This document shows positions 13,787 to 54,708 of a stretch of DNA of 64,000 nt, in pieces (the stretch's first letter is position 1; every line of letters starts with the position of its first letter). The notes beneath the pieces were generated by a model, which saw only the letters and a list, made by a program, of their open reading frames with translations, made no database searches and was not told the origin of the DNA. Source of the stretch: an uncultured Candidatus Saccharibacteria bacterium (GTDB taxonomy: Bacteria > Patescibacteriota > Minisyncoccia > Minisyncoccales > UBA5738); NCBI GenBank assembly GCA_964603475.1, contig CAZRVG010000001.1, forward strand, positions 63,988 through 127,987, in the 5' to 3' direction. The position numbers were made by a program, and so were the translations under genes.

Positions 13787-13803
13787 AAAATCATATTATT
13801 TTT

Positions 13804-14427: not shown

Positions 14428-14431
14428 ATAG

Positions 14432-15697: not shown

Positions 15698-15832
15698 TAT
15701 ACCAGCTATGCTGTTATTCTTTATGTAGAAGCATGCAATAATAACTTTGAGCGCGCTTCGGTGCTCCCCCGGAGAATCCGGGGCTTCAGCCGGGGAATTC
15801 CACGCTCTCAGATCGCTGCTTCAACAAAGATC

Positions 15833-16525
15833 TCAATCATCGGATTGAGTTTTTTGTTTTTTGCGGTTGCTTATCCAATAATCTTTGAACAATTCTTTTT
15901 CAGCGACAATATTATTTTTTAAAATTCCATAAAATTCATCGCCGCTTTCCTTTTTGTTCAGATAAGCCGCGACCGCGCCGGCGAGCCAATCAACAATTTG
16001 AATATTCGGATATTGTTTGGAATCCACCGTTTGGATTCTAACTTGCGCTCCTTTTACTAAATTTGGCAACAATCGCGCGGTTAAATTATCAATAAATTCC
16101 TGCTTGCCCACGCCCTTTAATCTTCTTTGATCGCAAAATATATGCAATAAAGATTCTTGCAAGGGCAAATATAAATCCAAAGTTTCCCCAACCAATTGGG
16201 TGTAAAGCAATCCGCTTTTTAACGACTTTTTTCCTCTGAATTCCAGCGGTATATTTTGACAGTCAAGATAGGTGTAAAATATGCGCACATCCATTTTCGC
16301 AATCTGGTGCAAAGTTCGCAATTTTAAATTTTTATCAATTCCCGAATCGGAAAACTTAATTTCCGATTGTTTGCGCATTGCTTTTGGGAATTTTAGCGCG
16401 CACCAAGATTTGAATTTCTTATGAGTTCTTTTGGGTTCGCCAACTGTAAATGACGCGATTAAAAAATAGCGTTCATTTGTCTTTTTATTGAATTGTCCGC
16501 TTTCATCTAAAAAGATATAAGCCAT
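15833..16525 (-). CDS. DUF3800 family protein inserted in the hsd operon
   Basis: N-terminal AYIFLDESG motif typical of DUF3800; between hsdM and hsdS. Confidence 0.6.
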   Translation of the reverse strand: MAYIFLDESGQFNKKTNERYFLIASFTVGEPKRTHKKFKSWCALKFPKAMRKQSEIKFSDSGIDKNLKLRTLHQIAKMDVRIFYTYLDCQNIPLEFRGKKSLKSGLLYTQLVGETLDLYLPLQESLLHIFCDQRRLKGVGKQEFIDNLTARLLPNLVKGAQVRIQTVDSKQYPNIQIVDWLAGAVAAYLNKKESGDEFYGILKNNIVAEKELFKDYWISNRKKQKTQSDD

Positions 16526-16557
16526 ACTTTTTCAACAGATTATTTTGACAATTAAAT

Positions 16558-17613
16558 TCACAAAATTTTTTTCCAATCGTCTTGAATTTTATTTTCAAGT
16601 TCGTGCGCATCTTTAGTTAATGCAATAAACTCACTCATTAATTCTTTCATCCGCGTTTCAAAATCCGCGTTGTCAATTTCATTTTCAATAATCTCCACAT
16701 ACCTCCCCGGATTCAGCGAATAATCATTGGCCCGAATTTCTTCCAATGTCGCCATCTTGCACCGGCCTTTTATATCTTTGTATTTGCCCGCATTTTCCTC
16801 GCCGCGATACCGTCGCACAATTCCCGCGATTTCTTGGATTTGGTCATCCGTCCATTCGCTGTGAGCGCGATCAATTGGCGTGAATATATCCTGCGCGTTG
16901 ATAAACAATACTTTCTTTTCTCTATTTGTTCCGCGCTTGCCTTTGTCAAAAAACCATAACATGCAAGAAAGCGTGGCGTTCATAAACATATTCGTGCCAA
17001 CGGAAATAATCACATCGATAAAGCCGGCTTCAACCATTTTTTGACGAATCTCTTTTTCTTTATTCCCGGCATCGCTGGCGCTATTTGCCATAACAAAACC
17101 TGCGCGCCCTTTGTCATTCAACGCGCTGGCAAACATCTGCATCCAAAGGTAGTTGGCATTGCTGATTTCGTTTTTGCCGGTAAGCGGCAGGCCGTAATTA
17201 TAACGCTGGTCGCCTTGCAGGCGCGCCGGATCAATTACTATTTGCCCGTTTTTATCCTTTCCTTTCACATTAAAGGGAGGGTTTGCAAGGACGAAATCAA
17301 ATTGTCCGATGCTTTTATGTAAATCTTCATAAAACGAATTAGCCAGTTCAATTTTTCCCGAAAGCCCGTGAATCGCCAGATTCATTTTGGAAACTTTCAA
17401 ATTGCTTTCTCCTTTTTCCTGGCCATAAATATGGATTTCTTCCATTATCGGCCGATAGGTTTTGTGCTTGGCGATAAATTTTGCGGATTGGACGAACATC
17501 CCGCCCGAACCGCAAGCCGGATCATAAATCTTGCCGTGATAGGGCTCTATAACTTCCGCTAAAAGCTTAACGATTGATTGCGGCGTGAAAAATTCTCCGC
17601 CAACCCGATATTT
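16558..17613 (-). pseudogene. hsdM: Type I RM N6-adenine methyltransferase subunit, N-terminally truncated (HsdM_N domain absent; first ATG lies after SAM-binding motif I)
   Basis: reading frame open from 17613 encodes ...GGEFFTPQSIVKLLAEVIEPYHGKIYDPACGSGG-MFVQ... then NPPF catalytic motif; in-frame stop at 17614-17616; only about 200 nt to the tRNA, so no room for the 150-aa N-domain. Confidence 0.7.
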
Positions 17614-19939: not shown

Positions 19940-19984
19940 ATTTATCTTTTGTTTAAATGTTTAAATGATTATATGATTAAATGA

Positions 19985-20854
19985 TTAAATGACCCTTTCT
20001 ATCGCGCGCAATTTTGCCGAAGCCGCGCGCGAATTGGCGTCAATTTCCTTGGTCGAAGGAACAATCGGCTTTTTAAACAGCAGTTTTGCCCTGCCGGATT
20101 CGGCCAGCTTTTTAAATTCTTCTTTTACGACCTTATCCTCCAAAGAATGGAAAGATATCGCCGCCATTCGCCCCCCCGCGTTCAAAATTTCAAAACCGGA
20201 CACAATCCCCCGCCTGATATTTTCAAACTCATCGTTAACCGCGACGCGCAACGCCTGGAAAATTCTCGCCCGCATGCTTCGAATACGCGGATAAGGCAGA
20301 CCAAAAATTATTCGCGCCAGATCCCGGGTGGTCGTTATTTCTTTTTTGCTTCTGGCATTCACAATCGCGCGGGCAATTTTTTTGGCGCTTTTTTCTTGGC
20401 CGAAATTTTTAAAAATTTCGGTCAAATCCTTCTCGGAGCATCGGTTAATCATTTTTGCCGCGTCAACCCGCGAATCGCTATCATATCTCATATCCAGCGG
20501 TTCGTCTTTGGCAAAAGAAAACCCTTTGCCGCTTTCATCCAAATGCCATGACGACATCCCCAAATCCAGCAATATTCCTTTTATGTTTTCAAAGTCGCGC
20601 GATCGCGCGATATCGGCAATATTGGCATAGGAATCGTTAACAATCGCCAATCTCGGATTTGCCCTCGCTTCTTCGGGCAAAGACAATATGTTTTCTTTGT
20701 CCCGCTCAATCCCCAACACTCTTCCTTTGGGCGCGGTTTTTTCCAAAATCGCCAAACTGTGCCCGCCGCGGCCAAAAGTGCAATCAATAAAGTTCTCATT
20801 GGGTTTGGGATCAAGCGCGGCAATCGTTTCGTTTAATAAAACCGGAATATGCAC
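19985..20854 (-). CDS. rsmH: 16S rRNA m4C1402 methyltransferase RsmH (MraW)
   Basis: MHIPVLLNE...DCTFGRGGHS...DLGMSS signature. Confidence 0.9.
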   Translation of the reverse strand: MHIPVLLNETIAALDPKPNENFIDCTFGRGGHSLAILEKTAPKGRVLGIERDKENILSLPEEARANPRLAIVNDSYANIADIARSRDFENIKGILLDLGMSSWHLDESGKGFSFAKDEPLDMRYDSDSRVDAAKMINRCSEKDLTEIFKNFGQEKSAKKIARAIVNARSKKEITTTRDLARIIFGLPYPRIRSMRARIFQALRVAVNDEFENIRRGIVSGFEILNAGGRMAAISFHSLEDKVVKEEFKKLAESGRAKLLFKKPIVPSTKEIDANSRAASAKLRAIERVI

Positions 20855-20957
20855 TTAAAAATTTCTAATTTCTAATTTCTAATTTCTAATAAATTTAAAA
20901 TTATAAAATTAGGAAATTTATTTTGAAATTAGTAATTGGAAATTTTGACATTATGGT

Positions 20958-21389
20958 TCAAACACCCAGCTCGTTTAATCTTTCGGCGATATTGCCGGCT
21001 TCTTTTTCGGTTTTTTCTTTATACGCCTGCCATTCTTGTTCATCCCAGATTTCAATCCTGTTATAAAGCCCTGCCACCACGGCCTTTTTCTTTAGCTTTG
21101 CGTAGTTTTTCAAATAATCCGGCACCAGAATCCGCCCCAAATTATCAAAGTCAACTTCCATCGCTCCGGAAAGCATTATCCGCGCGAATCCGCGGGCGTC
21201 GGCGCGGGACAGCGGCATTTCGCTGAGTTTTTTGGCCAGCTTTTCCCATTCATCGCGAGAATACAAAAATAAGCAATTATCCAATCCGCGAGTAATCACC
21301 GCCCCCTTCTTTAACTGCCGGCGAAATTTTGGCGGCACGCCCAGTCGTTTTTTGTCATCTATTGAATATGTGTATTCGCCGATAAACAT
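20958..21389 (-). CDS. mraZ: Transcriptional regulator MraZ
   Basis: duplicated DxxxR MraZ motif (SIDDKKRLGVP ... DNLGRILVP). Confidence 0.9.
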   Translation of the reverse strand: MFIGEYTYSIDDKKRLGVPPKFRRQLKKGAVITRGLDNCLFLYSRDEWEKLAKKLSEMPLSRADARGFARIMLSGAMEVDFDNLGRILVPDYLKNYAKLKKKAVVAGLYNRIEIWDEQEWQAYKEKTEKEAGNIAERLNELGV

Positions 21390-24910: not shown

Positions 24911-24997
24911 AAACGCGAATTTATCTATTATTCGTCCATTTCCCATTATGCCAACTTTCCCCCTTCCTGTAAACCCCGGCAATTTGCCCACAAAAAA

Positions 24998-25150
24998 ACA
25001 CCAACATTCTGCCCTGTCCCGCACCGTGATTTGCCTTTATATTTTATGCTTTAGCATGGCAAATCTCTGGTGCAGGAAGAATGTTGGAATGTTTGCTAAT
25101 CTGATTCTTTAATTCATTTGCCAGAGGACAAAATTCAGATAGCCGGCAAA
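24998..25150. mobile_element. MITE-like inverted-repeat element, family 1, copy A (with conserved 55-bp 3' extension)
   Basis: ccaacattct...agaatgttggaatgtt terminal inverted repeats, internal caccgtgatttgcc / ggcaaatc and atgc-ttta-gcat hairpins; near-identical to copies at 28649-28803 and 39097-39195. Confidence 0.65.
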
Positions 25151-25172
25151 TATTATTATGCAATAAAATTTA

Positions 25173-27317
25173 TTATTCTCCGGAGATAATCTTGTTGATT
25201 TTTTCGCGGGTTAATCGGCCGACATATCCCGATCCATGGCTCAAACCAATGGGTGATAAAATTTCACCGGCATATTTTTCTTGGAATTGAATCACCGCGG
25301 TTTTGGTGATACCGCCAAAATCGCCCGTTGGCACCACGGCAAGGTCTTGTGATTTGAGAACTTCCTGCAAGCATTTTACTTGTGTGTTTCCTCTAATGCC
25401 ATAAAACAAGTTTTCCGTAATCATCCCGCATGAAAATTCGCTGCCTTCACCGGTTAATATTTGCAATTGCCTTGTCAAAGATTCAATCAAATTTTTAATT
25501 TGGTTAATTTTATTGATAAGTTGTTCGCGCGTTATCCCTGCATTATCAGCAAACTCACCAATATTCGCGATATTTGAATTAGCGGTTTGGGGCGCACCCT
25601 TCGTCTGTTGAGAAACGATTTCTACGGCAACGCTATCCGTTGCGGATCCCGCCGAATTGGAACAGGTGATAATATATTCTTTTGGACTACCGATGGTTAT
25701 TCTCATTGCCCCGCTCTTCGTCTTGTTCCCCGACCAACTGCCGGAAGCTTGGCAAATATCAGCATTGGTTGAATTCCAAAGCAGTGTCACGGGTTCGCCA
25801 GCGTTTATCAAGGCTTTTTTTTGATAGCCATCGGCCGTGATATCCACTGTCGGTAAATTGACACCAATATTATTGGTAGTGTCGGTATTGTTATTACCAT
25901 TGATGTTATTATTGTCGCTTACGCTAATATTACTATCGCTAACAATACAAACTCCGTTTGAACAAGCTTCTCCGGTCAAGCATTTTGAATTGTCATCAGC
26001 CCATCCTGTACCCAATAAATTACAAACCTTGCAACCCGAAACCGCCATCGGAACGCAGGCAAAGCAAATTCCGTTTGAACATGTCTGCCCCGATGGACAA
26101 GCGATAATCGTCGACCATTCAACACAAGCGTCATTTTCATAATTTTTGCAAAACTGATAGCCGTTGCCGTTGCAATGCTTCAAGCTGCCGGTAAGGCATA
26201 TTCCCGATGAACAGGCCTTTTCATCCGGGCAAAGAGTAATTTGCGACCACTCCAAACAAGAGTCGGAATCGTAGTTGCCGCAGGTCTGAAACCCATTGCC
26301 GCTACACTGCTTGATGCCCGCAGAAGAACACTCATTAACACATTGCGCAACGCATTGTCCGCTGGAACAGATTTGCCCCGAAGCGCAACTGCCGCAGTTT
26401 AATGTGCCGCCACATCCATTGGAAGCTGTACCACAATTATAGTTCAAAGAAGCACAGGTTTTGGGGACGCAATTGGCAACGCATTGATTTGAGGAACAAG
26501 AATATCCTGTCGCGCAATTTCCGCAATTTAACGCATTACCGCACCCATCGGAAATCGTACCGCAGGCATAACCCAAGGAAGCACAGGTTTTGGGAATACA
26601 GTCGGCAATACATTTATTGGCAACGCAGGTATATCCCGTAGCACAAGTGCCGCAACTTAGCGTGCCGCCACATCCATTGGAAGCTGTACCACAATTATAG
26701 TTCAAAGAAGCACAGGTTTTGGGGACGCAATTGGCAACGCATTGATTTGAGGAACAAGAATATCCTGTCGCGCAATTTCCGCAATTTAACGCATTACCGC
26801 ACCCATCGGAAATCGTACCGCAGGCATAACCCAAGGAAGCACAGGTTTTGGGAACGCATGAATTGACCACATTGATCGATAGATTTGGAGTTTTGTCACC
26901 GAACCACGCCACTCCGTCTTGCACCATTCGCCATTGGAAATTATAAACGCCGGCGACCAAGGGCGCCGTAACGTTAAAGGTGAAGGTTTTGTTTGTGTTG
27001 AATTTAATTATCTCGGAACTGCTCAAATAAACACGGTTAACCCCCCACGTTTTATTATCTTGCGGATTTTGCGAGCCAAGACGACATTTTTTCGCCTCGC
27101 TCCAATAAAGCGCTTGTTCCCATCCCGGTTGTCCCCATCCAGCTATGCTAGGATTTTTCATCGTTATTGAAACCGAATACGTCTTACCCGCATCCATTTT
27201 TGAAGGCACCGACTGAGAAACAAAGTTTGCATACATTGCAAACCCCGCCGCAGGAAAACAAACTATCCCGCAAAAAATTAATAACAGTGATGCCAATTGA
27301 TTTTTTGATTTTTCCAT
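25173..27317 (-). CDS. Secreted cysteine-repeat surface protein with C-terminal peptidoglycan-binding (PG_binding_1-like) domain
   Basis: signal peptide; five or more 37-aa modules CVPKTCASLGYxCGTxSxGCGxxLxCGxCATGYxCxxNxCVAx; Ig-like domain; C-terminal GDFGGITKTAVIQFQEKYAG motif. Confidence 0.6.
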   Translation of the reverse strand: MEKSKNQLASLLLIFCGIVCFPAAGFAMYANFVSQSVPSKMDAGKTYSVSITMKNPSIAGWGQPGWEQALYWSEAKKCRLGSQNPQDNKTWGVNRVYLSSSEIIKFNTNKTFTFNVTAPLVAGVYNFQWRMVQDGVAWFGDKTPNLSINVVNSCVPKTCASLGYACGTISDGCGNALNCGNCATGYSCSSNQCVANCVPKTCASLNYNCGTASNGCGGTLSCGTCATGYTCVANKCIADCIPKTCASLGYACGTISDGCGNALNCGNCATGYSCSSNQCVANCVPKTCASLNYNCGTASNGCGGTLNCGSCASGQICSSGQCVAQCVNECSSAGIKQCSGNGFQTCGNYDSDSCLEWSQITLCPDEKACSSGICLTGSLKHCNGNGYQFCKNYENDACVEWSTIIACPSGQTCSNGICFACVPMAVSGCKVCNLLGTGWADDNSKCLTGEACSNGVCIVSDSNISVSDNNNINGNNNTDTTNNIGVNLPTVDITADGYQKKALINAGEPVTLLWNSTNADICQASGSWSGNKTKSGAMRITIGSPKEYIITCSNSAGSATDSVAVEIVSQQTKGAPQTANSNIANIGEFADNAGITREQLINKINQIKNLIESLTRQLQILTGEGSEFSCGMITENLFYGIRGNTQVKCLQEVLKSQDLAVVPTGDFGGITKTAVIQFQEKYAGEILSPIGLSHGSGYVGRLTREKINKIISGE
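26403..26856. repeat. Intragenic tandem duplication: two identical segments of about 195 bp with a 259-bp period inside the Cys-repeat gene
   Basis: gtgccgccacatccattggaagctgtacc...aagcacaggttttggga occurs at 26403-26597 and 26662-26856. Confidence 0.85.
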
Positions 27318-28629: not shown

Positions 28630-28648
28630 AATTTTGAAATTATCACCG

Positions 28649-28803
28649 ACATTCCAACATTCTGATTAGCCGCGCGTCGTGATTTGCCTTTGTGTTTTAT
28701 GCTTTAGCACGGCAAATCTCTGATGCGCGAATAATGTTGGAATGTTTGCTATTCCGATTCTTTAATTCATTTGCCAGAGAACAAAATTCAGATAGCCGGC
28801 AAA
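28649..28803. mobile_element. MITE-like element, family 1, copy C (with 55-bp extension, overlaps TspO 3' end)
   Basis: acattccaacattct...ataatgttggaatgtt, extension tgctattccgattctttaattcatttgccagagaacaaaattcagatagccggcaaa. Confidence 0.65.
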
Positions 28804-29307
28804 AGTTACCCACGCGATGTAGGGTAAAAGCAGATATGCCGCGGGTTTTGAAACGCGCCAAAAGCTTGCAACCGTCCATGCAATCGCCGCCCACAAAACC
28901 AGCAATTCAAAAAACGCCAACCCGGGAGATTTTAGCCCGAAGAATATCACCGACCAAAAAACGTTTAAAACCAGCTGGGCGGCAAAAATGGATATGGCGC
29001 CCCGCTTGCGCCAAGGGTCAAAAGAAATTTTTTGCAAAAGCCTCTCCCACGCCGTCCCGATTTTCCCTTGAACCGATTCTTCGGCTTCCTCTTCTTTTTC
29101 CCAAACCAAATACAGGGCAAACCCCATCAAAAGATATAGAATCGTCCACACCGTGCCGATAACCTCGCCCGAAGGCGTCCACGAGGGTTTGGCAAGCGCT
29201 TGATACCAACCGCCCACCGACGACGCCGTGGCCAATCCGCCAATCGCGCCCGCCGCCTGGCAAACCAAAATTGAAACAATCAATTTAAAAATATTTCTCT
29301 TTTTCAT
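28762..29307 (-). CDS. tspO: TspO/MBR family tryptophan-rich sensory protein
   Basis: five TM helices with conserved Trp-rich motifs (GGWYQ...KPSWTP...WTILY...FFGLKS..LLLPYIAW), plus an acidic loop insertion. Confidence 0.8.
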   Translation of the reverse strand: MKKRNIFKLIVSILVCQAAGAIGGLATASSVGGWYQALAKPSWTPSGEVIGTVWTILYLLMGFALYLVWEKEEEAEESVQGKIGTAWERLLQKISFDPWRKRGAISIFAAQLVLNVFWSVIFFGLKSPGLAFFELLVLWAAIAWTVASFWRVSKPAAYLLLPYIAWVTFAGYLNFVLWQMN

Positions 29308-30157: not shown

Positions 30158-31267
30158 TTACAATCCTTCTCCGCGTAATTGTTCCAAGAGCTCTTTTTGT
30201 TTTTTGGTGAGTTTTTTGGGGATGGCGATTTCGGTTTGGATATACATATTGCCGCGGCCAAAGCTGTTGAATCTGCGGATTCCTTTGCCGCTCACGCGGA
30301 AAATTTTGCCCGATTCGGTGCCGGAGGGCACTTTGAGCAGAATGTCTTTGCCGTCAATCGTGGGCACGTCAATCTCGCCGCCCAATGCCGCGAGCGAAAG
30401 CCCGATATCGCGCGCCACAAACAAGTCATCGCCTTTTCTTTCAAACACAGGATGAGCTTTTAGAAACACCCGCACGTACAAATCTCCGGTTTTGCCGCCT
30501 TTTTTGCCGGCTTCGCCTTTGCCTTCCAATTTGATTACCTGATTATTGTCAACTCCGGCGGGAATTTCCACCGCGATAGCTTCCTCGGTTTTAACGCGTC
30601 CTTCACCATGGCACACATTGCACGGCTTTTCCGGCCGGTATCCCTCGCCTTTGCATTCGGGGCACACCACGTACTGGGTAAACGACCCCAAAAAAGTTTT
30701 TTTAACTTGCTGAACTTGCCCCGTGCCGCGGCAAGAAAAACATTCTTTTATTTTCGTTTGCGGTTCGGCGCCCGATCCGTCACAGCGCGGGCAAACCGCC
30801 TGCTTTTGGATTTTGAACTCTTTTTTAATTCCCGTAAACGCCTCCTCCAAAGTAATTTCGGCATCCACGCGAATATCGCGCCCTTTTTTATGATCGCGCC
30901 GCCGCCGCGTTTGGCCGCCGCCAAAACCAAACATCTCTTGCATTATATCGCCCAAATCCTCAAACTGCACGTCAAATTCCGCGCCGGGCCGGCCCCAGAA
31001 CCAGCCGTCCTGCCCCGCTTGAGCGCCGCCAAAACCGCCAAACCCTCCGGCGCCGGAATTGTTAAACGCGTTGCCGAATTGATCATATTGGCTTCGCTTT
31101 TGCTTATCCGAAAGGATTTGGTAGGCCTCGTTGACCTCCTTGAATTTTTCCGCGTCGCCCCCCTTGTCGGGATGGTATTTGTGCGCCATGGCGCGATAGG
31201 CTTTTTTTATCTCATCGGCGCTCGCGGACTTCTGCACTCCCAAAATTTTGTAATAATCCTTACTCAT
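30158..31267 (-). CDS. dnaJ: Chaperone DnaJ
   Basis: J-domain HPD, G/F region, four CxxCxGxG zinc-finger repeats, C-terminal domains. Confidence 0.9.
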
Positions 31268-31390
31268 ACACTCAGTTTCCAGTTTTCAGTTTTCAGTTTT
31301 CAATAAATTTTCATTGGTCATTGAATCATTGAACATTCAATGAAAATTGATAATTGAAAAATGAAAATTTTGAAACCAAAAATTCAAACT
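31268..31390. promoter_or_regulatory. Intergenic palindrome plus heptamer-repeat element (family 2) upstream of dnaJ
   Basis: cagttttcagttttcagttttcaataaattttcattg...cattcaatgaaaattgataattgaaaa. Confidence 0.6.
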
Positions 31391-31433
31391 TGTGTCCAAT
31401 AATAACCAAACCAAACTCCTTTAATAAATTATA

Positions 31434-33356
31434 TTAGTGTTTTTCTTTGTATTCTCCTTCCGCGGCGCTTTCGTCTTTCTTATCGGCATCTTGCGGCTTT
31501 TCTTGCGCTTCGCCGGCAGAACCGCCGGATTGCCCATCGCCTTGGGAAGACTGCTGTTTATACACTTGTTCCCCTATTTTTGACAGAGTTTGCGATAAAT
31601 CGTCGTTCTTTGCTTTTAACTCTTCCATATTATCCCCATCTTTAACTTTTTTCAAGGCTTCGATCTTTTCCTCAACTTCTTTTTTGATCTCGGCAGCAAC
31701 TTTGTCGCCCGCGTCGCGCAATGACTTTTGCGCGGTATAAATCAAATTATCGGCGGTATTCCGTGTGTTGATCAATTCCTGCTTTTTGCGATCGCTTTCC
31801 GCGTTAGCTTTTGCTTCCTGCTTCATTCGTTCGGCTTCTTCTTTGGAAATTCCCGCCGAACCCTCAATGCGAATGGTTTGAGTTTTGTTGGTGGCTTTGT
31901 CTTTGGCGGTCACGCTCAAAATTCCGTTGGCATCAATGTCAAAAGAAACTTCAACTTGCGGCACCCCCCGCGGCGCCGGCATTATTCCGTCCAAAATAAA
32001 TTTTCCCAAAGACTTGTTATCCGCGCTCATCGGCCGCTCGCCTTGCAAAACATGGATCTCCACCGAAGTTTGATTATCCGCGGCCGTGGAGAAAACTTGC
32101 GATTTTGCCGTGGGCACCGTGGTGTTTTTGGGAATTAAAACGGTATTCACATTGCCCATGGTTTCAATGCCCAAAGAAAGCGGGGTCACATCCAAAAGCA
32201 AAACGTCTTTTACCTCTCCCTGTAATATGCCGGCTTCCACCGCCGCGCCGATCGCCACCACCTCATCGGGATTGATTGATTGGTTGGCCTCTTTGCCGAA
32301 GAATTTTTTCACTTCCTCCTGAATAATCGGCATACGGGTTTGCCCGCCCACCAAAACGATTTCCTCAATGTCTTTTGCCGACAATTTGGCATCGTCAAGA
32401 GTTTGGCGCACCAAATTGATGGAGCGCTCAATCAAATCGCGCACCAAATCTTCCAGCTTGGCGCGGCTTAATTTGTAATATAAATGCTTGGGGCCCGAAG
32501 CGTCGCTGGTGATAAACGGCAGGTTAACTTCGGTTTCCATCGCCGTGGAAAGCTCGATTTTTGCCTTTTCGGCGCCTTCCTTCAATCTTTGCAAGGCCAG
32601 CTCGTCTTTTGACAAATCAACCCCGTTTTCCTTTTTATATTCGTCAACCAGCCAATCCATAATTCTTTGATCCACATCATCGCCGCCCAAATGATTATCG
32701 CCGCCGGTGCCTTTAACTTCCACAGTGTCTTCGGATATATCTAAAATTGAAACATCAAAAGTTCCGCCGCCGAAATCATAGACCAGCACTTGTTCGTTCT
32801 TTTTTTTCGTTAAGCCATATGCCAGCGCCGCGGCCGTGGGCTCGTTGATAATGCGCTTCACTTCAAAGCCCGCGATCTCGCCCGCCAGCTTGGTGGCTTT
32901 TCTTTGCGAGTCATCAAAATAGGCCGGCACGGTGATAATCGCGCCGTCCACCGCCTCGCCCAATTTCGCTTCGGCATCCTGTTTTATTTTTTGCAAAACC
33001 ATTGCCGAAATTTCCGCGGGCGCCAGCCATTTGTCGCCCATTTTAACTTCCACGCCGCCGTCTTGCGCCCGTTCGCGAATTTCATAGGGCAAAAGTTTCA
33101 AATCTTTTTGCACTTCCTGATCGGTGAATCTCCGCCCGATCAAGCGCTTCACCGAAAACAAGGTGTTTTTGGGATTGGTGATCTGCTGGCGCTTTGCCAT
33201 TACCCCCACCAGCCTTTCGCCGATTTTGGTCAATGCCACCACCGAAGGCGTCAAGCGCGATCCTTCTTTGTTTTCCAAAATTTTGGGTTCACCGTTAACA
33301 ATCGCGGCGGTTTCCGACATTGTTGTCCCCAAATCAATACCAATTGTTCTTGCCAT
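31434..33356 (-). CDS. dnaK: Chaperone DnaK (Hsp70)
   Basis: [16 protein letters not shown], full Hsp70 ATPase and substrate-binding domains; start set at [12 protein letters not shown] (ORF open to 33401). Confidence 0.9.
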
Positions 33357-33419
33357 AATTTTATATGATTTATTATATTTATACTTTTTTATTTTTTGCA
33401 AATCTTTTAATTACTGGAA

Positions 33420-33560
33420 GCTTTTAGTCCATTGAAATTTTCAGTTTTCATTGAATTTTCAATATAACAATTACCAAACATAATTCAGCATTTATGTTTA
33501 GATAATTGGCAGAATAATCATTCATTGAAAACTGGAAACTGATAATTGAAAACTGTTTCC
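33420..33560. promoter_or_regulatory. Family 2 intergenic element upstream of dnaK
   Basis: attgaaattttcagttttcattgaattttcaat...core...attcattgaaaactggaaactgataattgaaaactg. Confidence 0.6.
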
Positions 33561-33670
33561 CAAGGTTTGGCGGGGCATTCGCCCCGCCGTTTTTCCAAAA
33601 CAGGTTTTAATATCGTTCCCCATTCTTTCAAAAGAACAGAGAATCTTAAATCTTAAATCTTAAATCTTTT

Positions 33671-34114
33671 CTACTTCCCCTTAATTTCAATCTTTTTCGT
33701 TTTCTCTTCCTCAATTCTGGGCTCAATCTTGGGCACGGTGATTTTTAACATTCCATCCTTGAATTCGGCTTGCGCTTTGTCGGCATCCACTTTCACCGGC
33801 AATGCCACCGAACGTTTCACATAACCATGCCTGATCTCCTTTCGCCAATAGCCTTTCTTTTTGTCTTCTTCCTCTTCTTTTTTTTCCGAACTGCCCTCAA
33901 TCGTCAAAACATTATCCTTGATTTGCGCCGTGATTTCTTCGGGGGCAAAACCCGGCAATTCGGCTTCGGCGCAAACCTTGCCTTCTTTTTCATAAACATC
34001 AACTTTGGGAGCGCCGGGCATCTTCATCAGTTTGAACGACGGCAAATCAAACAAATCATCATCCTCAAACCAACGATCGATATCCCATCCGCCCCCGTAA
34101 GGTATCAATGCCAT
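33671..34114 (-). CDS. Hsp20/alpha-crystallin small heat-shock protein
   Basis: alpha-crystallin domain with GVL-like (GMLKITVP) and IxI-like C-terminal motif. Confidence 0.85.
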   Translation of the reverse strand: MALIPYGGGWDIDRWFEDDDLFDLPSFKLMKMPGAPKVDVYEKEGKVCAEAELPGFAPEEITAQIKDNVLTIEGSSEKKEEEEDKKKGYWRKEIRHGYVKRSVALPVKVDADKAQAEFKDGMLKITVPKIEPRIEEEKTKKIEIKGK

Positions 34115-34306
34115 AATTTTCGCGCTTTTGTTTCGTCCGCAATTTTTAATTTAACATAACCTGTTTTGGATTGCCCGCGAACTTGGCAAAAGCGTTGTTA
34201 AAAAAATTTTAAAATTTCTAATTACTAATTCCTAAATAAATGACTAATTTTAGAATTTTAGAATTTTAAAATTTATTTAGAAATTCAGAAATTAGAAATT
34301 TGTCAT

Positions 34307-34621
34307 TTATTTTATAAATCCTATTTTCCCTTCCGGCGACTCGCCTTCTTTTATCGCGCCGAATTTCTCCTCGTATTTTTTCACGTTCTCGGCCAACGCC
34401 TGCGCGATGCGCTTGGCATGGGCGGGGCTCACCAGCACCCGAGACGCCAGCATCCCCTGCGGCGGCGCGTTGAAAAAGAAATCAAAAATGAACTCCTCTT
34501 TGGTGTGCAATATCTGCATCAAATTGGAATACGCCCCCTTTAACTCCTCATCGCGAACTTTTATCTGCAACTGCTGCTGTTGCCTCTGCCCCTGTTGTTG
34601 ATTTGGTTGATTTTGATTCAT
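34307..34621 (-). CDS. DUF3467-like small protein with Gln-rich N-terminus
   Basis: YSNLMQILHTKEEFIFDFFF core resembles DUF3467 YSN..HS.EF.LDF. Confidence 0.4.
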   Translation of the reverse strand: MNQNQPNQQQGQRQQQQLQIKVRDEELKGAYSNLMQILHTKEEFIFDFFFNAPPQGMLASRVLVSPAHAKRIAQALAENVKKYEEKFGAIKEGESPEGKIGFIK

Positions 34622-34645
34622 TGTATTGACAAATTATTTATTTTA

Positions 34646-34783
34646 TGATATGGTAGCGAAAGGAGGTAAGAAAATAGTTGAACTGTCTATTCTGGGATTG
34701 ATATTGACTGTAGTTGGCATGGGATTATTTATTGTAGCCGAACTTCGGAAAATAAGCCGAAGTCTAGATATTATCGCTAAAAA
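34646..34783 (+). CDS. Possible 45-aa single-TM small protein (MVAKGGKKIVELSILGLILTVVGMGLFIVAELRKISRSLDIIAKK), speculative
   Basis: short ORF below the ORF-track cut-off, hydrophobic core, followed by cccgccgcgc-ttg-cgcggg T-run terminator; only plus-strand ORF in a minus-strand block. Confidence 0.25.
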
Positions 34784-34839
34784 ATAATCCCTTTGCTTTC
34801 TTTTTATTTCCCGCCGCGCTTGCGCGGTTTTTTAATACC

Positions 34840-34980
34840 TCATTAGTTTTCAGTTTCCAGTTTTCAGTTTCCAATGAATGGCCATTTTGCCAATTATCAA
34901 ACAAATTACCAAACTTCTGTTTGAAAAATGAAACATTGAAAACTCAATGAAAACTGATAATTGAAAACTGAAAACTTTGT
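34840..34980. promoter_or_regulatory. Family 2 intergenic element between grpE and the DUF3467 gene
   Basis: cagtttccagttttcagtttccaatgaatggcc...cattgaaaactcaatgaaaactgataattgaaaactgaaaact. Confidence 0.6.
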
Positions 34981-35460
34981 TTATTTGGCAACTTTGACCT
35001 TCGCGGGACGCAACAAGCATCCGTCCATCATATATCCTTTTTGCGCTTCCTCAATAATCGTTCCCGATTCTTGGTCTTCGCAATCCACTGCTTGCACCAC
35101 TTCGTGACATTCGGGATTGAAATTTTTTCCCACCGATTCAATTGCCTTGACGCCATTGGTTCTCAAAAAATCTTCCAATTGCTTTTTAATCATCAAAAGT
35201 CCCTTGACGTGTTCGTTGTTTTGCAAATCCTCGGGCAGATTTTTTTGCGCCAGCTCCAGATTATCAATCATCGGCAAAAGACTGAAAATAAATCCCTGCC
35301 GGCCGTATTTGGCGAATTCCTCCATTCTTTGACTTTCTTCTTTTTTGTAGTTGATCAAATCCGCCTTGGCGCGCTTCCAACCATCCAAATACTCTTGCGC
35401 TTGCCTTTTGGCATCTTCCAATTCCGTTAATTTTTTATCTTTTTGCTGTTTTTCCATCAT
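34981..35460 (-). CDS. grpE: Nucleotide exchange factor GrpE
   Basis: coiled-coil N-terminus, conserved GrpE core (LLPMIDNLE...GTIIEEAQKGYMM). Confidence 0.85.
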   Translation of the reverse strand: MMEKQQKDKKLTELEDAKRQAQEYLDGWKRAKADLINYKKEESQRMEEFAKYGRQGFIFSLLPMIDNLELAQKNLPEDLQNNEHVKGLLMIKKQLEDFLRTNGVKAIESVGKNFNPECHEVVQAVDCEDQESGTIIEEAQKGYMMDGCLLRPAKVKVAK

Positions 35461-35600
35461 TTAATTTTTCAGTTTTCAATTTTCAATTTTCATTGAATTT
35501 TCAATGAATCAATTTTCAAACAAAATTCAGCATTTCTGTTTGGCTAATTGGCAAAATGATCATTCATTGAAAACTGAAAACTGGTAATTGAAAATTGTTT
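35461..35600. promoter_or_regulatory. Family 2 intergenic element upstream of grpE (same core as the hrcA copy, opposite orientation)
   Basis: core ttcaaacaaaattcagcatttctgtttggctaattggcaaaatgatcattc flanked by cagttttcaattttcaattttcattgaa / ttcattgaaaactgaaaactg. Confidence 0.65.
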
Positions 35601-36319
35601 TATATATTTTCAAACATTTTCAACGCTTCGTTGATCAATTCGATGTTTTTATCATAGGCCATTCTTTTGGGACCCACGATGGAAAACACGGTTTCATTTT
35701 CGCGGTCGGGACGGCAAATAAAGGTTATCGCGGCAAATTCATCGGCTTTGTCAAAACAATTCTCTTTTCCGATGTAAATATCCATTCCTTCATTCATCGG
35801 CTTGCGAGTTTTAACGCTGTCTTCCAAATAACCCAGATAGCCGATGAAATTTTCCACCAAATCCCTTTCGCCAAATTCGGGCTTTTGCAATAAGTCCTCC
35901 CAACCGTCTTTTATCATCAAATCCTGCCGGCACAAATATCCCAGCACCAGCGACGATGACGCCGCCGCCAAGCTGTGCGCCAAACTGTTGGCAATTTTGA
36001 AAATATCCTCAAAATCATCTTCAAGCCCCTCAAAGCCAAAATCAAGTTTTCCCGACGGGTTCCGCTGGCTTTTATCTTTCAAAACCTCGTCCACAAACAG
36101 GCGGTAGCCTCTATCGGTGGGAATTCGCCCCGCGGAAGTGTGCGGCTGGGTCAAAAAACCGTCATCGGTGAGCTTTTGCATTTCAATGCGAATGCTTGCC
36201 GGACAGATGCCAAAATCATACCTTTCCCCCAGATATTGCGAAGACACCGGCCGCGCCGATTCCACATATTCCCTGATTATCGTGTCCAATATTGTCCTCT
36301 GCCGCTCGGAAATCTCCAT
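35600..36319 (-). CDS. hrcA: Heat-inducible transcription repressor HrcA (short form)
   Basis: N-terminal winged helix ERQRTILDTIIREYVESARPVSSQ...SPATIRNEM-like ICPASIRIEMQKL. Confidence 0.8.
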   Translation of the reverse strand: MEISERQRTILDTIIREYVESARPVSSQYLGERYDFGICPASIRIEMQKLTDDGFLTQPHTSAGRIPTDRGYRLFVDEVLKDKSQRNPSGKLDFGFEGLEDDFEDIFKIANSLAHSLAAASSSLVLGYLCRQDLMIKDGWEDLLQKPEFGERDLVENFIGYLGYLEDSVKTRKPMNEGMDIYIGKENCFDKADEFAAITFICRPDRENETVFSIVGPKRMAYDKNIELINEALKMFENI

Positions 36320-36470
36320 AAATCACTAATTTTCAATTACCAGTTTTCAGTTTTCAATGAATGATCATTTTGTCAATTAGCCAAACAGAAATGCTGAATT
36401 TTGTTTGAAAATTGATTCATTGAAAATTCAATGAAAATTGGCAATTGAAAACTGAAAACTGTTGGTGTTC
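36320..36470. promoter_or_regulatory. Family 2 intergenic element upstream of hrcA
   Basis: reverse complement of the 35461-35600 copy core. Confidence 0.65.
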
Positions 36471-36477
36471 TCATTCT

Positions 36478-36795
36478 ATCACTCTCAAATTATCAGTCAA
36501 CCCTCGCGAGTGATAATCCGGCAGTAGAGACGCGGCGCGCTAAAGCGCAAAAACACAGAGCCGCGCCACACTGCCGGACAAGTCCCCATGGTGCGAAATG
36601 CCTTTTGTTGAAGTCAATTTTCAACGAGCGCGTTGAAAATTGACTTCAACAAAGTGGTCAACGAAAAAGCTGCGACCTCGCCAAACTTGCATTTTGATTC
36701 TATCTTTGTATTCCCGGGGCTTACCCTCGCAGCTTATCCCGAGGTAATCCGAGGGATACTCGCGAGCGGTTAGACCCCTTCAACAGCATTTTTTC
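36478..36795 (+). ncRNA. rnpB: Structured non-coding RNA candidate, possibly a reduced bacterial RNase P RNA
   Basis: long-range pairing cctcgcgagtgat (5') with atactcgcgagcgg (3') as a P1-like helix; GGAcAAGUCC..CCAUGG resembling the GGAAAGUCCGGGCUCCAUAGG region; 3' CCCGGGGCUUACC resembling CCCGGCUUAUCG; 20-bp hairpin gttgaagtcaattttcaacg/cgttgaaaattgacttcaac; no ORF. Confidence 0.35.
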
Positions 36796-37170
36796 CTTGG
36801 CAAATTTATAACAAAAAAACCGCCTCTCGGCTTCATTTATTATTGTCAAAATTTCAAGATGATATGTGGAGGGTAGCAACTATAACGCCTACCCTCCGCA
36901 AAAGTCAAACGACCTGCAAAGTCGAACCAACGATTCAATATCCTTATTCAATTTCTTTCTTCAAATCTCCTTATTTGCCCTCCTTTCAACACATGCGGCC
37001 AACGCTTCTGCGCCGCCGCAACTCCATCCCCACCTCGCGGGAGCGGATCGCAGACTTTTTCCAAAATCCGCGCTCCGCTCCCGCAAAGCAAATGATAAAG
37101 AACTATTTTCTAACCTGTTAAAACATTAATAGCAAATTCCCGTATTTCTGTAAAGACCCTTTATCCCCAA

Positions 37171-39034: not shown

Positions 39035-39096
39035 CTTTTAACAGAATCATTATTCGCTTATTCGTGCGAATATGCCCATAACTTCAATCCAACAAA

Positions 39097-39265
39097 AACA
39101 TTCCAACATTTTGCCCTGTCGCGCACCGTGATTTGCCCTTGTATTTTTATGCTTTAGCATGGCAAATCTCTGATGCGCGAAGAATGTTGGAATGTCCGCT
39201 ATCGGGCAATGCCATATATTCCATATGGAATATAGAAAGTCCGGTGAGGCTTGATCTCACAGAAT
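39097..39265. mobile_element. MITE-like element, family 1, copy D with tail carrying the attccatatggaat palindrome and ccggtgagg...ctcac hairpin
   Basis: aacattccaacatttt...agaatgttggaatgtccgctatcgggcaatgccatatattccatatggaatata...tccggtgaggcttgatctcacag. Confidence 0.65.
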
Positions 39266-39321
39266 CCAAAATGATTATATGATTGTATGATTAGATGTTT
39301 AAATGATTAAATGCCCGCCAA

Positions 39322-47370: not shown

Positions 47371-47428
47371 GATAATATTTCAAAAGTCAAAAATCAAAAG
47401 TCAAAATTAAGGATTGATTTTTGATTTT

Positions 47429-48877
47429 TCAATTTTGATTTTCGACGGTTCTGCCAATGGCAAAAAGAGTCGCTTCGTCAAAATGCTTGCCCATAATTTG
47501 CAGGCCAGTCGGCAGTCCTTCGACTTCCCCGCAGGCAAGCGCCAGCGAAGGAACCGCCGCCAGATTGGCCGAAATGGTAAAAATATCAGCCAAATACATT
47601 TGCAAAGGATCGTTGAATTTTTCGCCAATCTCAAACGGCATCACCGGCGACACCGGCGCGATTATCGCGTCAACAATTTCAAACGCCCGATCAAAATCGC
47701 GCTTGATTAAATTGCGCACTTTTTGCGCGCGCACGTAATAGGCGTCATAATACCCCGCGGAAAGCACATATGTTCCCAGCATTATCCGACGCCTCACTTC
47801 GGCCCCAAATCCCTTGCCCCGGCTTTCCAGATAGATATCGTCAATGCCGCCGCCCTCCTGTTCGGAACGGCCATAGCGAATGCCGTCAAAACGCGCCAAA
47901 TTGGAACCGGCTTCGGAAGTGGCAATGATATAATAACATGCCAGCGCGTATTCGCTGTGCGGCAGACTGATTTCAACAATCTCATTTCCCTTCTCTTGCA
48001 ATTCTTTTAATTTGGCGCGGATCACAGATTCAATTCGAGGATCAATGCCTTCGATAAAATACTCCTTGGGAATGCCTATTTTATGGGTCCTTTTCGGAAC
48101 ACTGTCGGGCGCGATATCAATCGAGGTGGAATCCATCTCGTCTTTGCCGCAAATCGCTTCAAAAACCGCCTGCACATCGTCAACATTTTTTGCCAGCGGA
48201 CCGATCTGATCCAAAGATGAGCCAAAAGCGGTGCAGCCATGGCGGGAAACCGCGCCATATGTCGGCTTGAGCCCCGCGACTCCGCAAAAACAAGCTGGCT
48301 GGCGGATGGAGCCGCCCGTATCCGAACCCAAAGCGGCAACGCATTGGTTTGCCGCCACCGCCGCGGCCGATCCGCCCGACGATCCCCCGGGCACGCGCTT
48401 TGTGTCGCGCGGATTGCGCGTTTGCCCGAACGCGGAGGTTTCGGTGGAGCTCCCCATAGCAAATTCATCCATATTGGTCTTGCCCAAAATCACCGCGCCC
48501 CGGTTTTTTAATTTTTTAATAACCGCGGCATCATAAGACGCGGCGTAATTTTCCAAAATTTTGGAAGCCGAAGTGCACTTTTGGCGTTCCACCATAATGT
48601 TGTCTTTAATCGCCATGGGAACACCCGCCAAAAGCGGAATTTTTTCTCCGTTTTTGATTTTATCATCAACTTCTTTGGCCTGCCGCATCGCCGAATCGCG
48701 CGCCAGACTCAAAAACGCGAAAATTTCTTCGTTTTCTTTTTCGATTTTATCCAAATAGGCATCAGCCAATTCGGCGGCGGAAAACTTTTTTCCAACCAAC
48801 CCCTCATGAACTTGATTAATCGTAAAATCGCTCAACTCCATAAAATTTGAAATTTTTAATTTGAAATTTTTAAACAA
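47429..48877 (-). CDS. gatA: Glutamyl-tRNA(Gln) amidotransferase subunit A
   Basis: amidase signature GGSSGGSAAAVAA, Ser-cisSer-Lys triad context. Confidence 0.9.
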   Translation of the reverse strand: MFKNFKLKISNFMELSDFTINQVHEGLVGKKFSAAELADAYLDKIEKENEEIFAFLSLARDSAMRQAKEVDDKIKNGEKIPLLAGVPMAIKDNIMVERQKCTSASKILENYAASYDAAVIKKLKNRGAVILGKTNMDEFAMGSSTETSAFGQTRNPRDTKRVPGGSSGGSAAAVAANQCVAALGSDTGGSIRQPACFCGVAGLKPTYGAVSRHGCTAFGSSLDQIGPLAKNVDDVQAVFEAICGKDEMDSTSIDIAPDSVPKRTHKIGIPKEYFIEGIDPRIESVIRAKLKELQEKGNEIVEISLPHSEYALACYYIIATSEAGSNLARFDGIRYGRSEQEGGGIDDIYLESRGKGFGAEVRRRIMLGTYVLSAGYYDAYYVRAQKVRNLIKRDFDRAFEIVDAIIAPVSPVMPFEIGEKFNDPLQMYLADIFTISANLAAVPSLALACGEVEGLPTGLQIMGKHFDEATLFAIGRTVENQN

Positions 48878-48980
48878 TTTTTAATGTTATAATTTTTAAA
48901 AATTCAATGCCATAATTATAATTTAACGAAGTAAAAGAAATTTGTTTTTTTGTTTAAAAATTTCAAATTAAAAATTATTT

Positions 48981-49268
48981 TTAGAGGATTGTTTTCACTT
49001 TTAAATAGCCGTCTTTTTTTTGCGGCATTTGCGCGGTGAGCTTTTCCAATTCTTCTTTTGTCCGCTTGACGGCAGAATCCTCGCGCAGAACATTGCCCGC
49101 CGCCACCGAATGGGTAAAAGGTTCCACTCCGCCAATATCAACTTCCTGCAATTTGTCTATATATTCCAAAATCGCCGAAAGCTCTTTTTGGTATTTCTCA
49201 ATCTCGACATCGTCCAATCCCAACCGCGCCAACTTGGCGATATGCTGTGTTTCTTCTTTTGAAAGCAT
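48981..49268 (-). CDS. gatC: Glutamyl-tRNA(Gln) amidotransferase subunit C
   Basis: 95 aa GatC family (IAKLARL...LxxIL.YIDKL). Confidence 0.8.
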   Translation of the reverse strand: MLSKEETQHIAKLARLGLDDVEIEKYQKELSAILEYIDKLQEVDIGGVEPFTHSVAAGNVLREDSAVKRTKEELEKLTAQMPQKKDGYLKVKTIL

Positions 49269-51148: not shown

Positions 51149-51163
51149 CCTAACATTTATCAA

Positions 51164-51290
51164 TTATCAGTTTTCAATTTTCATTGAGTTTTCAATTATC
51201 AATTTTCAAACAAAAAGCAACGAATCATTTTGTTTGAATCATTGAACAAATGAATCATTCAATGAAAACTGTTAAATGAAAACTGAAAAA
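51164..51290. promoter_or_regulatory. Family 2 intergenic element upstream of mreB
   Basis: cagttttcaattttcattgagttttcaattatcaattttcaaacaaaaa...gaatcattcaatgaaaactgttaaatgaaaactgaaaa. Confidence 0.6.
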
Positions 51291-52547: not shown

Positions 52548-52692
52548 AAAATAACAAATTTCTAATTTCTAATATCAAAATAAATGCCGAAATATTAAAA
52601 TGTCAAAATTTTTAATTTTAGTATTTTTTAATTTTGAAATTTATTGGAAATTGGTAATTGGTAATTTTAACATTTCGATTATTTCAGCCTTG

Positions 52693-54492: not shown

Positions 54493-54559
54493 AAATAGCC
54501 GCCACAGGCGGAATTACCAGTTTCCAATTACTCCCGCTATCGCGGGATCCCGCCGAGGC

Positions 54560-54680: not shown

Positions 54681-54708
54681 TACCAGATTTTCCCTTAATT
54701 TCTACCCC

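Follow-up and report, generated by a model that had tools for sequence, protein, structure and literature searches.

The 64-kb window analysed here, a stretch of 64,000 nucleotides from contig CAZRVG010000001.1 of an uncultured Candidatus Saccharibacteria bacterium, contains a family of dispersed repeats built from heptamer arrays and a palindrome, several of which lie among the heat-shock genes hrcA, grpE, dnaK and dnaJ. These repeats of 100-154 bp are probably derivatives, devoid of open reading frames (ORFs) and similar to miniature inverted-repeat transposable elements (MITEs), of the foldback elements represented by the intervening sequences (IVSs) of 23S rRNA and the intervening-sequence protein (IVP) gene, and they would be carried in host transcripts as long hairpins. 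The family is tied to the rRNA intervening sequences because some copies are borne by 23S rRNA genes, full-length partners carry a PF05635 gene, and heptamer arrays flank IVP genes in metagenomes. The repeats are not heat-shock regulators, since in relatives they are absent, replaced or flipped, and since no orientation or type of intergenic gap is free of them. Likewise, the element replaces neither CIRCE (the controlling inverted repeat of chaperone expression), nor a promoter, nor a ribosome-binding site. A literature search found no earlier description of dispersed IVS-like or MITE elements in genomes of the candidate phyla radiation (CPR), and the IVS family, in its condition as a mainly dispersed intergenic repeat of these genomes, appears to be undescribed.

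Element copies and their architecture

A profile search (nhmmer) of the window retrieved exactly 11 copies of about 100-154 bp and nothing further at E<0.01. They are the following:

809-945, + strand: E1, between the ANTAR/GAF regulator gene and glnA (nhmmer E 7.6e-25; hairpin z -5.7)
5489-5633, + strand: E2, upstream of efp (nhmmer E 2.6e-29; 59-nt arms, 76% complementary; fold z -6.5)
31272-31370, + strand: E3, in the dnaK-dnaJ gap (nhmmer E 5.3e-17; fold z -2.6)
33432-33556, - strand: E4, in the hsp20-dnaK gap, upstream of the dnaK promoter-like site (nhmmer E 1.1e-29; fold z -3.7)
34844-34978, + strand: E5, abutting the grpE stop codon (nhmmer E 1.5e-33)
35464-35597, - strand: E6, filling the whole hrcA-grpE gap (nhmmer E 2e-36)
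36327-36462, + strand: E7, between the hrcA promoter/operator and start codon, that is, in the predicted 5' untranslated region (UTR) (nhmmer E 4.6e-36)
51154-51291, - strand: E8, between the proS stop and the mreB start (nhmmer E 4.3e-27)
53791-53930, + strand: E9, in the frr-rseP gap (nhmmer E 4.5e-27)
54515-54668, + strand: E10, upstream of frr (nhmmer E 1.1e-27)
56078-56211, + strand: E11, in the mreB-holB gap (nhmmer E 5.8e-33)

A copy consists, in this order, of a T-rich heptamer array (AGTTTTC and AATTTTC types), a CAAT(G/A)AAT box, a core with a small CAAAC...GTTTG hairpin, TTGAAAATTGATT, a 16-bp palindrome and a reverse-complement array (GAAAACT and GAAAATT types). Period-7 arrays are present at both ends of all window copies, and the terminal inverted repeats have arms of up to 59 nt that are 75-76% complementary. 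The palindrome, of the form 7-2-7 (CATTGAA-AA-TTCAATG), is the best-conserved part of the window copies. When up to two mismatches are allowed, the 16-mer CATTGAAAATTCAATG is found 18 times in the window against 0.44 expected, and the double heptamer GAAAACTGAAAACT 42 times against 1.4, which bears out an initial annotation, made from the sequence alone, that had described these motifs as a recurrent family. Five copies lie in the heat-shock gaps where that annotation had placed them, and the six copies that it had reported near glnA, efp, mreB, rseP, frr and holB were recovered as well. At the gathering threshold, Rfam gave no match at the elements anywhere in the window, and no rRNA gene in it.

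Individual copies have features of their own. E1 stands in forward orientation, with its palindrome adjoining the glnA start, and E3 has a truncated core, seen as a central deletion in the alignment, and ends 5 nt from the dnaJ start codon. E6 and E7 are 94% identical, mutually inverted and flank hrcA, and they account for the opposite orientations of the core already noticed before grpE and hrcA (35464-35597 and 36327-36462); recombination between them could invert hrcA. The left heptamer array of E10 is interrupted at 54533-54563 by a 31-nt GC-rich double hairpin (cccgctatcgcggg / cccgccgaggcggtg), which the orthologous copy in L095 lacks (loci compared with the window are given here by L numbers) and which may be a second, tiny insertion element.

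Relation to 23S rRNA intervening sequences and the IVP gene

The same profile detects copies inside the 23S rRNA genes of L096, L109 and L080. Covariance-model alignment assigns copies from all three loci to helix 45, whose hairpin loop they occupy immediately 5' of GGUAGGGGAGCG, and further ones to the helix 25 loop (L096) and to one other hairpin loop; in L096, one gene has three copies. These two helices, 25 and 45, are where IVSs are classically found (PMC11270868, PMC4990558). None of the window copies lies in these loops, all of them being intergenic, whereas family members elsewhere do. As a side observation, the helix-45 insertions of L109 (4640-4900) and L096 (3860-4050) have similar small hairpins on both flanks of the element (CGATGCtttGCATCG and CGATGCagaGCATCG in L109), as though the original helix-45 stem-loop had been duplicated where the element inserted.

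In full-length copies (L088, L037 and L020, and L002 in another flavour), the position of the short-copy core is taken exactly by a PF05635 23S_rRNA_IVP gene, with match values of 1.2e-15 in L088, 2.9e-13 in L037 and 2e-13 in L002. These copies run from a heptamer array and a CAAT(A/C/G)AAT box through the gene, of about 120 codons and coding for an Avd-like four-helix bundle, to TTRAAAATTRAWT, the palindrome CATTGAAAATTCAATG and a reverse-complement heptamer array. The gene is missing from the window copies, which have instead a core of about 50 nt containing the CAAAC...GTTTG hairpin. The short copies share their ends with this longer partner, whose sole ORF is IVP, a protein not known to have transposase activity.

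The association of heptamer arrays with IVP genes extends to metagenomes, where 80 loci were taken from 568 confirmed relatives and 70 ORFs had complete flanks. A 7-nt periodic array was found upstream of 59 of these 70 ORFs, downstream of 63 and on both flanks of 55, and period 7 stands out in the flanks, with 16 of 21 self-matches against at most 12 for the other periods from 4 to 11. The own arms of IVP elements are more complementary than arm pairs taken across elements (p=3.7e-7), and thus the arms co-vary between flavours, such as AATTTTC/GAAAATT, AATTTTG/CAAAATT, AAATTTT/AAAATTT and AAATCCA/TGGATTT.

IVSs have been known since 1990, and their origin, their spread and the role of the IVP (S23p) protein are still open (PMC4990558). 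In the helix-45 IVS of Coxiella, the terminal stem measures 28 bp, three tandem heptamers precede the IVP start, and RNase III cuts at the first repeat (PMC4990558). The 23S genes of CPR bacteria contain many short ORF-less insertions at IVS sites, with IVP ORFs in some of them (Tsurumaki et al., PMC11270868), and dispersed copies are not described in that work. Moreover, IVP genes have been found inserted between cas genes (PMC3936711), and the retroelement accessory protein Avd belongs to PF05635 (PMC10053308).

Spread across Patescibacteria and turnover at orthologous gaps

The 20-mer CATTGAAAATTCAATGAAAA has matches in more than 115 stretches of a species-representative genome collection, a number that is a lower bound. 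Among the matches listed, nearly all records are labelled Patescibacteria (CPR), from many classes, and the few other labels are unconfirmed; the flanks of the matches have the same architecture as the window copies. In a set of 128 copies, no orientation preference was seen in co-directional gaps (32 forward and 29 reverse). Convergent gaps account for 8 copies, divergent gaps for 5 and predicted ORFs for 6, and the arrays end a few nt from neighbouring start or stop codons. Such a distribution is at odds with a promoter, with an operator and with a translation signal.

Comparison with relatives reveals a rapid replacement of copies. The order of the genes in the heat-shock operon is conserved and the gaps between them are not. 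A copy is present between the hrcA promoter and start codon in the window, L029 and L003, and is absent in L004 and L005, where the leader past the promoter measures just 26-31 nt and is repeat-free. The hrcA-grpE gap, filled by E6 in the window, is an empty site of 14 nt in L005, holds a copy of the same family in reverse orientation in L004, and contains other heptamer flavours in L003 and L002. E8 is absent in L095, with 11 nt from the mreB start to the proS stop, and the rseP-proS gap of L095 lacks a counterpart of the foldback that the window carries at 52550-52670. In the DUF3467-hsp20, dnaK-dnaJ and holB-mreB gaps the flavour in the window differs from that in L029 or L095; for instance, L029 has a CATTGAAAAYTCAATG-family copy in the DUF3467-hsp20 gap where the window has an AATTTCT / TTAGAAA foldback. 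Altogether, other flavours occupy orthologous gaps in L002, L003, L029 and L095. At three orthologous sites, including that of E5, whose L029 copy is inverted, the copies stand in opposite orientations, and these flips fit either recombination between the inverted arms or re-insertion. At the position of E9, L095 has a copy that is 84% identical. By contrast with the gaps, the CIRCE promoter, the 85-nt hsp20 leader and the hairpin after hsp20 are nearly unchanged in the window, L029 and L002, and thus the conserved regulatory DNA lies outside the elements.

The initial annotation had proposed three explanations for the repeats, namely a REP/MITE-like selfish element, the operator of a global regulator or a replacement of the Shine-Dalgarno (SD) sequence, and had suggested a comparison of orthologous loci. 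That comparison, in which the element is absent, of another flavour or flipped at several sites, supports the selfish element, as do the missing orientation bias, the occurrence in all gap types, the ORF-bearing partners and the rRNA copies.

We consider it very unlikely that the element is an operator at which a DNA-binding protein, recognising the palindrome and the arrays, controls the adjacent genes. The palindrome, best conserved in the window copies, is indeed shaped like the site of a dimeric protein, and the arrays resemble iterons. However, copies also follow stop codons and lie in convergent gaps and in 23S rRNA loops, their distance to start codons ranges from 4 to 76 nt in either orientation, orthologous genes of relatives lack the element, and the neighbouring genes (glnA, efp, mreB, frr, holB and the chaperone genes) are functionally unrelated. 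A protein might still bind the element for the element's own propagation.

The heat-shock genes and their operator

The hrcA, grpE, dnaK and dnaJ genes had been recognised from the start and are confirmed, all of them on the - strand. They form, together with two further genes, a cluster in the order hrcA-grpE-DUF3467-hsp20-dnaK-dnaJ, in which 5 of the 11 window copies are found:

35600-36319, - strand: hrcA
34981-35460, - strand: grpE
34307-34621, - strand: DUF3467 gene
33671-34114, - strand: hsp20
31434-33356, - strand: dnaK
30158-31267, - strand: dnaJ
36490-36516, - strand: CIRCE-variant inverted repeat TTATCACTC-N9-GACTGATAA, predicted HrcA operator (3 mismatches to CIRCE; conserved in relatives)
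36473-36500, - strand: hrcA promoter-like site TTGACT-N16-TAGAAT with TG (promoter scan, 10/12 matches; conserved in relatives)
33372-33401, - strand: dnaK promoter-like site TTGCAA-N18-TATAAT, between E4 and the dnaK start codon (promoter scan, 10/12)

The initial annotation had found no CIRCE upstream of any of these genes and had named a takeover of promoter regions by the element as one possibility. Both points have to be abandoned. A search for CIRCE with up to 3 mismatches gave a single match in the window, at 36490-36516, where 0.01 would be expected by chance. The variant found is TTATCAGTC-N9-GAGTGATAA, reading TTATCACTC-gcgagggtt-GACTGATAA on the gene strand, and its two 9-nt arms, separated by a 9-nt spacer, are complementary at 8 of 9 positions. 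Compared with CIRCE (TTAGCACTC-N9-GAGTGCTAA), 24 of 27 positions match if the nine unspecified spacer bases are counted, and 15 of 18 in the arms. The fourth base of the half-sites is changed symmetrically (G to T and C to A), and the right arm reads GACTG instead of the GAGTG of CIRCE, which creates a -35 box, TTGACT. The site overlaps the promoter of the hrcA operon, as in known CIRCE/HrcA systems, with the -35 box of the promoter-like site lying within the right arm of the operator; this promoter-like site is among the best-scoring ones (10/12) on the - strand between 30 and 37 kb. The heptamer element itself is unrelated to CIRCE.

All related operons compared (L001, L003, L004, L005, L006 and L029; HrcA 65-100% identical where the identity is known) have precisely this variant, a single time, ahead of hrcA, and they include L004 and L005, whose hrcA leaders have no repeat. 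Thus, 36490-36516 is predicted to be the HrcA operator, and the lineage, judged by its DNA, retains CIRCE as a symmetric operator variant together with a short HrcA, of 239 aa in the window. Since this CIRCE-type operator and the promoter are conserved and precede the hrcA copy, E7 represents an insertion in the predicted 5' UTR of hrcA and not an operator substitute. In L005 (7297-7323) and L006 (4453-4479), the first half of the hrcA promoter/operator (cccattatcactcggggggcttgactgctaattt) is found a second time some 2.6 kb upstream of hrcA, and the gap where it lies has no obvious downstream gene.

The same sites bear on the idea of a mobile promoter, in which TTGAAA-type heptamers and the A/T-rich DNA that follows would serve downstream genes as -35 and -10 boxes. 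We give it scarcely any credence. Weak sigma-70-like matches (9/12) do exist within E7 and E6, but better ones (10/12) stand outside the elements at hrcA and dnaK and are conserved in relatives, copies are also found in convergent gaps and in rRNA, and A/T-rich repeats yield chance matches, with 25 sites against 10 expected over the whole region.

The positions of the copies relative to the genes also differ from those first described. It had been stated that every gap is filled by one member, but the DUF3467-hsp20 gap has another flavour (34188-34325), and the grpE-DUF3467 and hsp20-dnaK gaps contain further features besides. Nor do the arrays end 10-30 nt from the start codons: the distance is 4-8 nt for hrcA, grpE and dnaJ, the dnaK copy ends 76 nt upstream with TTGCAA-N18-TATAAT in between, and the copy at 34844-34978 abuts the grpE stop instead of a start.

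An enhancer of translation replacing the SD sequence, with A-rich GAAAAYT repeats recruiting ribosomes, is highly improbable, although the A-rich arm stands directly before the starts of hrcA, grpE, dnaJ, glnA and efp in a genome nearly free of SD motifs. This placement is trivial, because in an inverted repeat occupying a gap the 3' arm is the A-rich one whichever strand is read. Of the 46 predicted genes, a single one carries an SD-like motif and the other 45 lack it, whether or not an element is nearby, and the lineage is therefore SD-poor as a whole. Moreover, E5 and other copies come after stop codons, and the orthologous genes in L004, L005 and L095 manage without the element. In several genes a -10-like box stands at most about 15 nt from the start codon (e.g., 54706-54746 and dnaK), which suggests leaderless mRNAs or mRNAs with very short leaders.

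Several other features of the cluster are recorded here as side observations. The hsp20 gene is preceded by a leader at 34115-34200 on the - strand (cgcttttgccaagttcgcgggcaatccaaaacaggttatgttaaattaaaaattgcggacgaaacaaaagcg) and followed by a hairpin at 33565-33600 (cctgttttggaaaaacggcggggcgaatgccccgcc); while both are so well preserved in the window, L029 and L002, the coding DNA of these loci is merely 72-81% identical. An inverted repeat flanks the gene, with CCAAAACAGG before it and CCTGTTTTGG after it, and L003 has no hsp20 at all. The arrangement may represent a region of heat-shock control, an RNA thermometer or a gene cassette. The grpE-DUF3467 gap contains a small ORF on the opposite strand (34626-34832, + strand) for a hydrophobic peptide (..ILGLILTVVGMGLFIVAELRK..), which L029 lacks. 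The ORF has a TTGACA-N17-TATGGT site, the only unambiguous AAAGGAGGT motif observed, and a GC hairpin with a T-run behind it. Upstream of the hrcA promoter, a GC-richer stretch (36520-36840) is full of hairpins, including a perfect 23-bp hairpin at 36604-36653, and sites resembling a promoter (36908-36879) and a terminator (36834-36816) were noted on the - strand. The stretch has no Rfam match, and an E-value scan of 36440-36960 gave only chance matches of miRNA-like hairpins; from its sequence features, it may encode a small RNA of no known family.

Hairpin folding and the proposed processing

All 11 window copies fold into long hairpins, with z-scores from -2.6 to -8.0 relative to shuffled sequences. 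E11 is the only one strongly biased towards the sense strand, with a minimum free energy of -51.5 kcal/mol in sense and -18.3 in antisense, and its gene-sense RNA forms an almost continuous stem through G-U pairs. No consistent bias between sense and antisense was found in the window copies, and no advantage of the sense strand in 54 co-directional CPR copies (32 vs 22, p=0.35).

According to our proposal, each copy would be co-transcribed with its host genes, with E7 in the hrcA 5' UTR downstream of the intact CIRCE-type operator and promoter, and with E6 and E3 in intercistronic positions. In RNA, each copy would fold into a long imperfect hairpin, which would probably be cut out by RNase III, by analogy with the rRNA IVSs of Salmonella, Leptospira and Coxiella. 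Such an excision would explain the tolerance of the host for these elements in rRNA, in UTRs and between cistrons. An action of IVP in trans on the heptamer arrays or the palindrome is speculation.

Hairpins between genes can also be read as domesticated operon punctuation, that is, as signals for RNA processing or stability that the host keeps, uncoupling cistrons or, in the manner of REP and Correia elements, guarding upstream mRNAs at their 3' ends. The copies fill gaps in likely operons and end a few nt from start or stop codons, their hairpins are stable, E11 is fully paired on the gene-sense RNA only, and between genomes the copies differ less than the coding DNA beside them. Nevertheless, we regard punctuation as unlikely, because the same gaps in relatives are empty, other-flavoured or oppositely oriented, the sense strand has no overall advantage in fold energy, and copies are also found in convergent and divergent gaps and in rRNA. 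A function for the host is likewise disfavoured by relatives that do without the element at the same sites, by unbiased fold energies and by the absence of covariation between arms in the palindrome sub-family.

The proposed origin from IVS/IVP foldback elements has its own difficulties, and the following points weigh against it. We infer co-transcription, hairpin formation in vivo and cleavage by RNase III alike. RNAalifold, applied to 17 copies, recovered only the small palindrome hairpin and no long stem supported by covariation; the missing consensus stem is probably due to a slip in heptamer register. In the CATTGAAAATTCAATG sub-family, own arms pair no better than foreign arms (19.0 vs 19.2 of 28), so that compensatory evolution of the arms is negative within this sub-family and positive across the flavours of IVP elements. 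The 64-kb window contains neither a PF05635/IVP gene nor an RNase III gene. Inspection of the flanks of the 11 copies and of the filled/empty pairs gave no consistent target-site duplication, in a setting where element boundaries are fuzzy and relatives are about 75% identical. Since no such duplication was recognised and IVP is not a known transposase, the term mobile is drawn from comparative patterns only. Furthermore, the L029 copies are 92-93% identical to E6/E7, while the coding DNA of both genomes is 74-79% identical, and the right arm is nearly invariant across phyla. This high identity together with the invariant arm could reflect a function or constraint at the level of the host rather than pure selfishness; these observations, and the 94% identity of E6 and E7, also fit recent spread, gene conversion or recognition by a conserved factor.

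Comparison with known elements and significance

The classical rRNA IVSs of Salmonella, Leptospira, Coxiella and other bacteria resemble the window elements in the terminal inverted repeats that form a long stem, and in the tandem heptamers beside the IVP ORF (GACAGAT, three times, in Coxiella; PMC4990558). Other shared traits are full-length members with a PF05635 gene, homologous copies in the helix 25/45 loops, and short ORF-less forms in both groups, the IVP gene being optional and many classical IVSs having no ORF. The window copies differ in being dispersed over intergenic spacers and a 5' UTR, at a density of 11 per 64 kb, and excision by RNase III, demonstrated for classical IVSs only, is for them a conjecture.

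Bacterial MITEs and palindromic repeats such as Correia/NEMIS, RUP, BOX and ERIC are likewise short, non-coding, multi-copy and intergenic, with terminal inverted repeats; they are co-transcribed, as would be the case here, they are polymorphic between relatives, and they have a larger ORF-bearing partner that shares their ends. Correia elements are also substrates of RNase III. The window elements differ from them in that no target-site duplication was recognised beside the copies, the partner ORF encodes an Avd-like four-helix bundle and no known transposase, and the arms consist of degenerate 7-nt tandem units in many co-varying flavours. Repetitive extragenic palindromes (REPs) and the interspersed mosaic elements that they build (BIMEs) are, like the window elements, abundant extragenic palindromes between operon genes. 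However, REP/BIME units are about 35 nt long and GC-rich, with a conserved GTAG end and a Y1 transposase (RAYT), none of which applies to the 100-154-bp, A/T-rich, array-built elements of the window. No transposase gene, of the Y1 type or any other, was found in the 64 kb. Eukaryotic foldback (FB) transposons have long inverted arms made of short tandem repeats, so that the entire element forms a hairpin. They are far larger and unrelated in sequence, and the likeness is one of architecture alone. TIGR-Tas arrays were dropped as candidates, given their different repeat unit and the absence of a Tas gene.

A broader proposal can be made only tentatively, and we think it possible but more doubtful than not. 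IVS/IVP elements would be a distinct class of prokaryotic mobile foldback element, the ORF-less copies of which would have been mobilised in trans and spread through the intergenic DNA of CPR bacteria. The Avd-like IVP pentamer, or a host factor that it recruits, would recognise the heptamer-array arms and the CATTGAAAATTCAATG box, and the classical rRNA IVSs would be only the subset in tolerant loops. If true, this would explain the origin of IVSs and give PF05635 a function outside diversity-generating retroelements. The window offers an IVS-type element that lives mainly outside rRNA, is abundant and fast-turning-over, and has clear IVP-bearing full-length partners. Hundreds of natural insertions, empty sites and arm flavours are thus available for the study of mobility and processing. 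For CPR genomics, the elements fill a large share of the intergenic gaps and can mislead the prediction of promoters, ribosome-binding sites and operons, as well as repeat and CRISPR finders.

Other foldbacks and repeats of the window

In addition to the 11 copies, an inverted-repeat search, period-7 arrays and folds point to at least 5 foldbacks of other flavours:

34188-34325: AATTTCT / TTAGAAA flavour, in the DUF3467-hsp20 gap (inverted repeats I3, I6 and I10; period-7 arrays; fold)
20856-20963: AATTTCT flavour, between mraZ and mraW (4.4 perfect AATTTCT copies in TRF; hairpin fold)
47372-47440: short foldback of TCAAAAG / TTGATTT flavour (inverted repeats I14 and I16; period-7 arrays; fold)
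48840-48985: AATTTGAAATTTTT flavour, with 27-nt perfectly complementary arms (inverted repeat I4; fold)
52550-52670: AATTTCT ... ATTGGTA foldback in the rseP-proS gap (period-7 arrays; fold)

A separate class of repeats consists of unpaired single arrays of 8-nt units (TGTTTATA, TTAAATGA, AAATGATT and AATCATAT), which adjoin gene ends at 6276-6326, 19953-19992, 39269-39313 and 61440-61477. Small ORFs beside TTTATATG octamer arrays were suspected of being IVP genes and are not IVP.

Longer repeats were observed as well. A dispersed repeat of 60-155 nt (..TTTTATGCTTTAGCATGGCAAATCTCTG..GGAATGTTTGCTA..) occurs at 24987-25155, 28640-28808 and 39089-39204, with shorter pieces at 27475 and 40345; its copies are 86-93% identical and lie near genes without a Pfam match. 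An ORF of 714 aa (25173-27317), also without a Pfam match, contains internal tandem repeats of 129/258 nt at 26377-26858, the two 258-nt units being 96% identical. A direct repeat of 112 nt is found at 61610-61721 and 62362-62473, with 100% identity and 752 nt apart. Finally, a DUF3800-V RNA (Rfam, 69.5 bits) at 15727-15823 lies directly upstream of a DUF3800 gene (15833-16525), both within a type I restriction-modification cluster (10658-17499).

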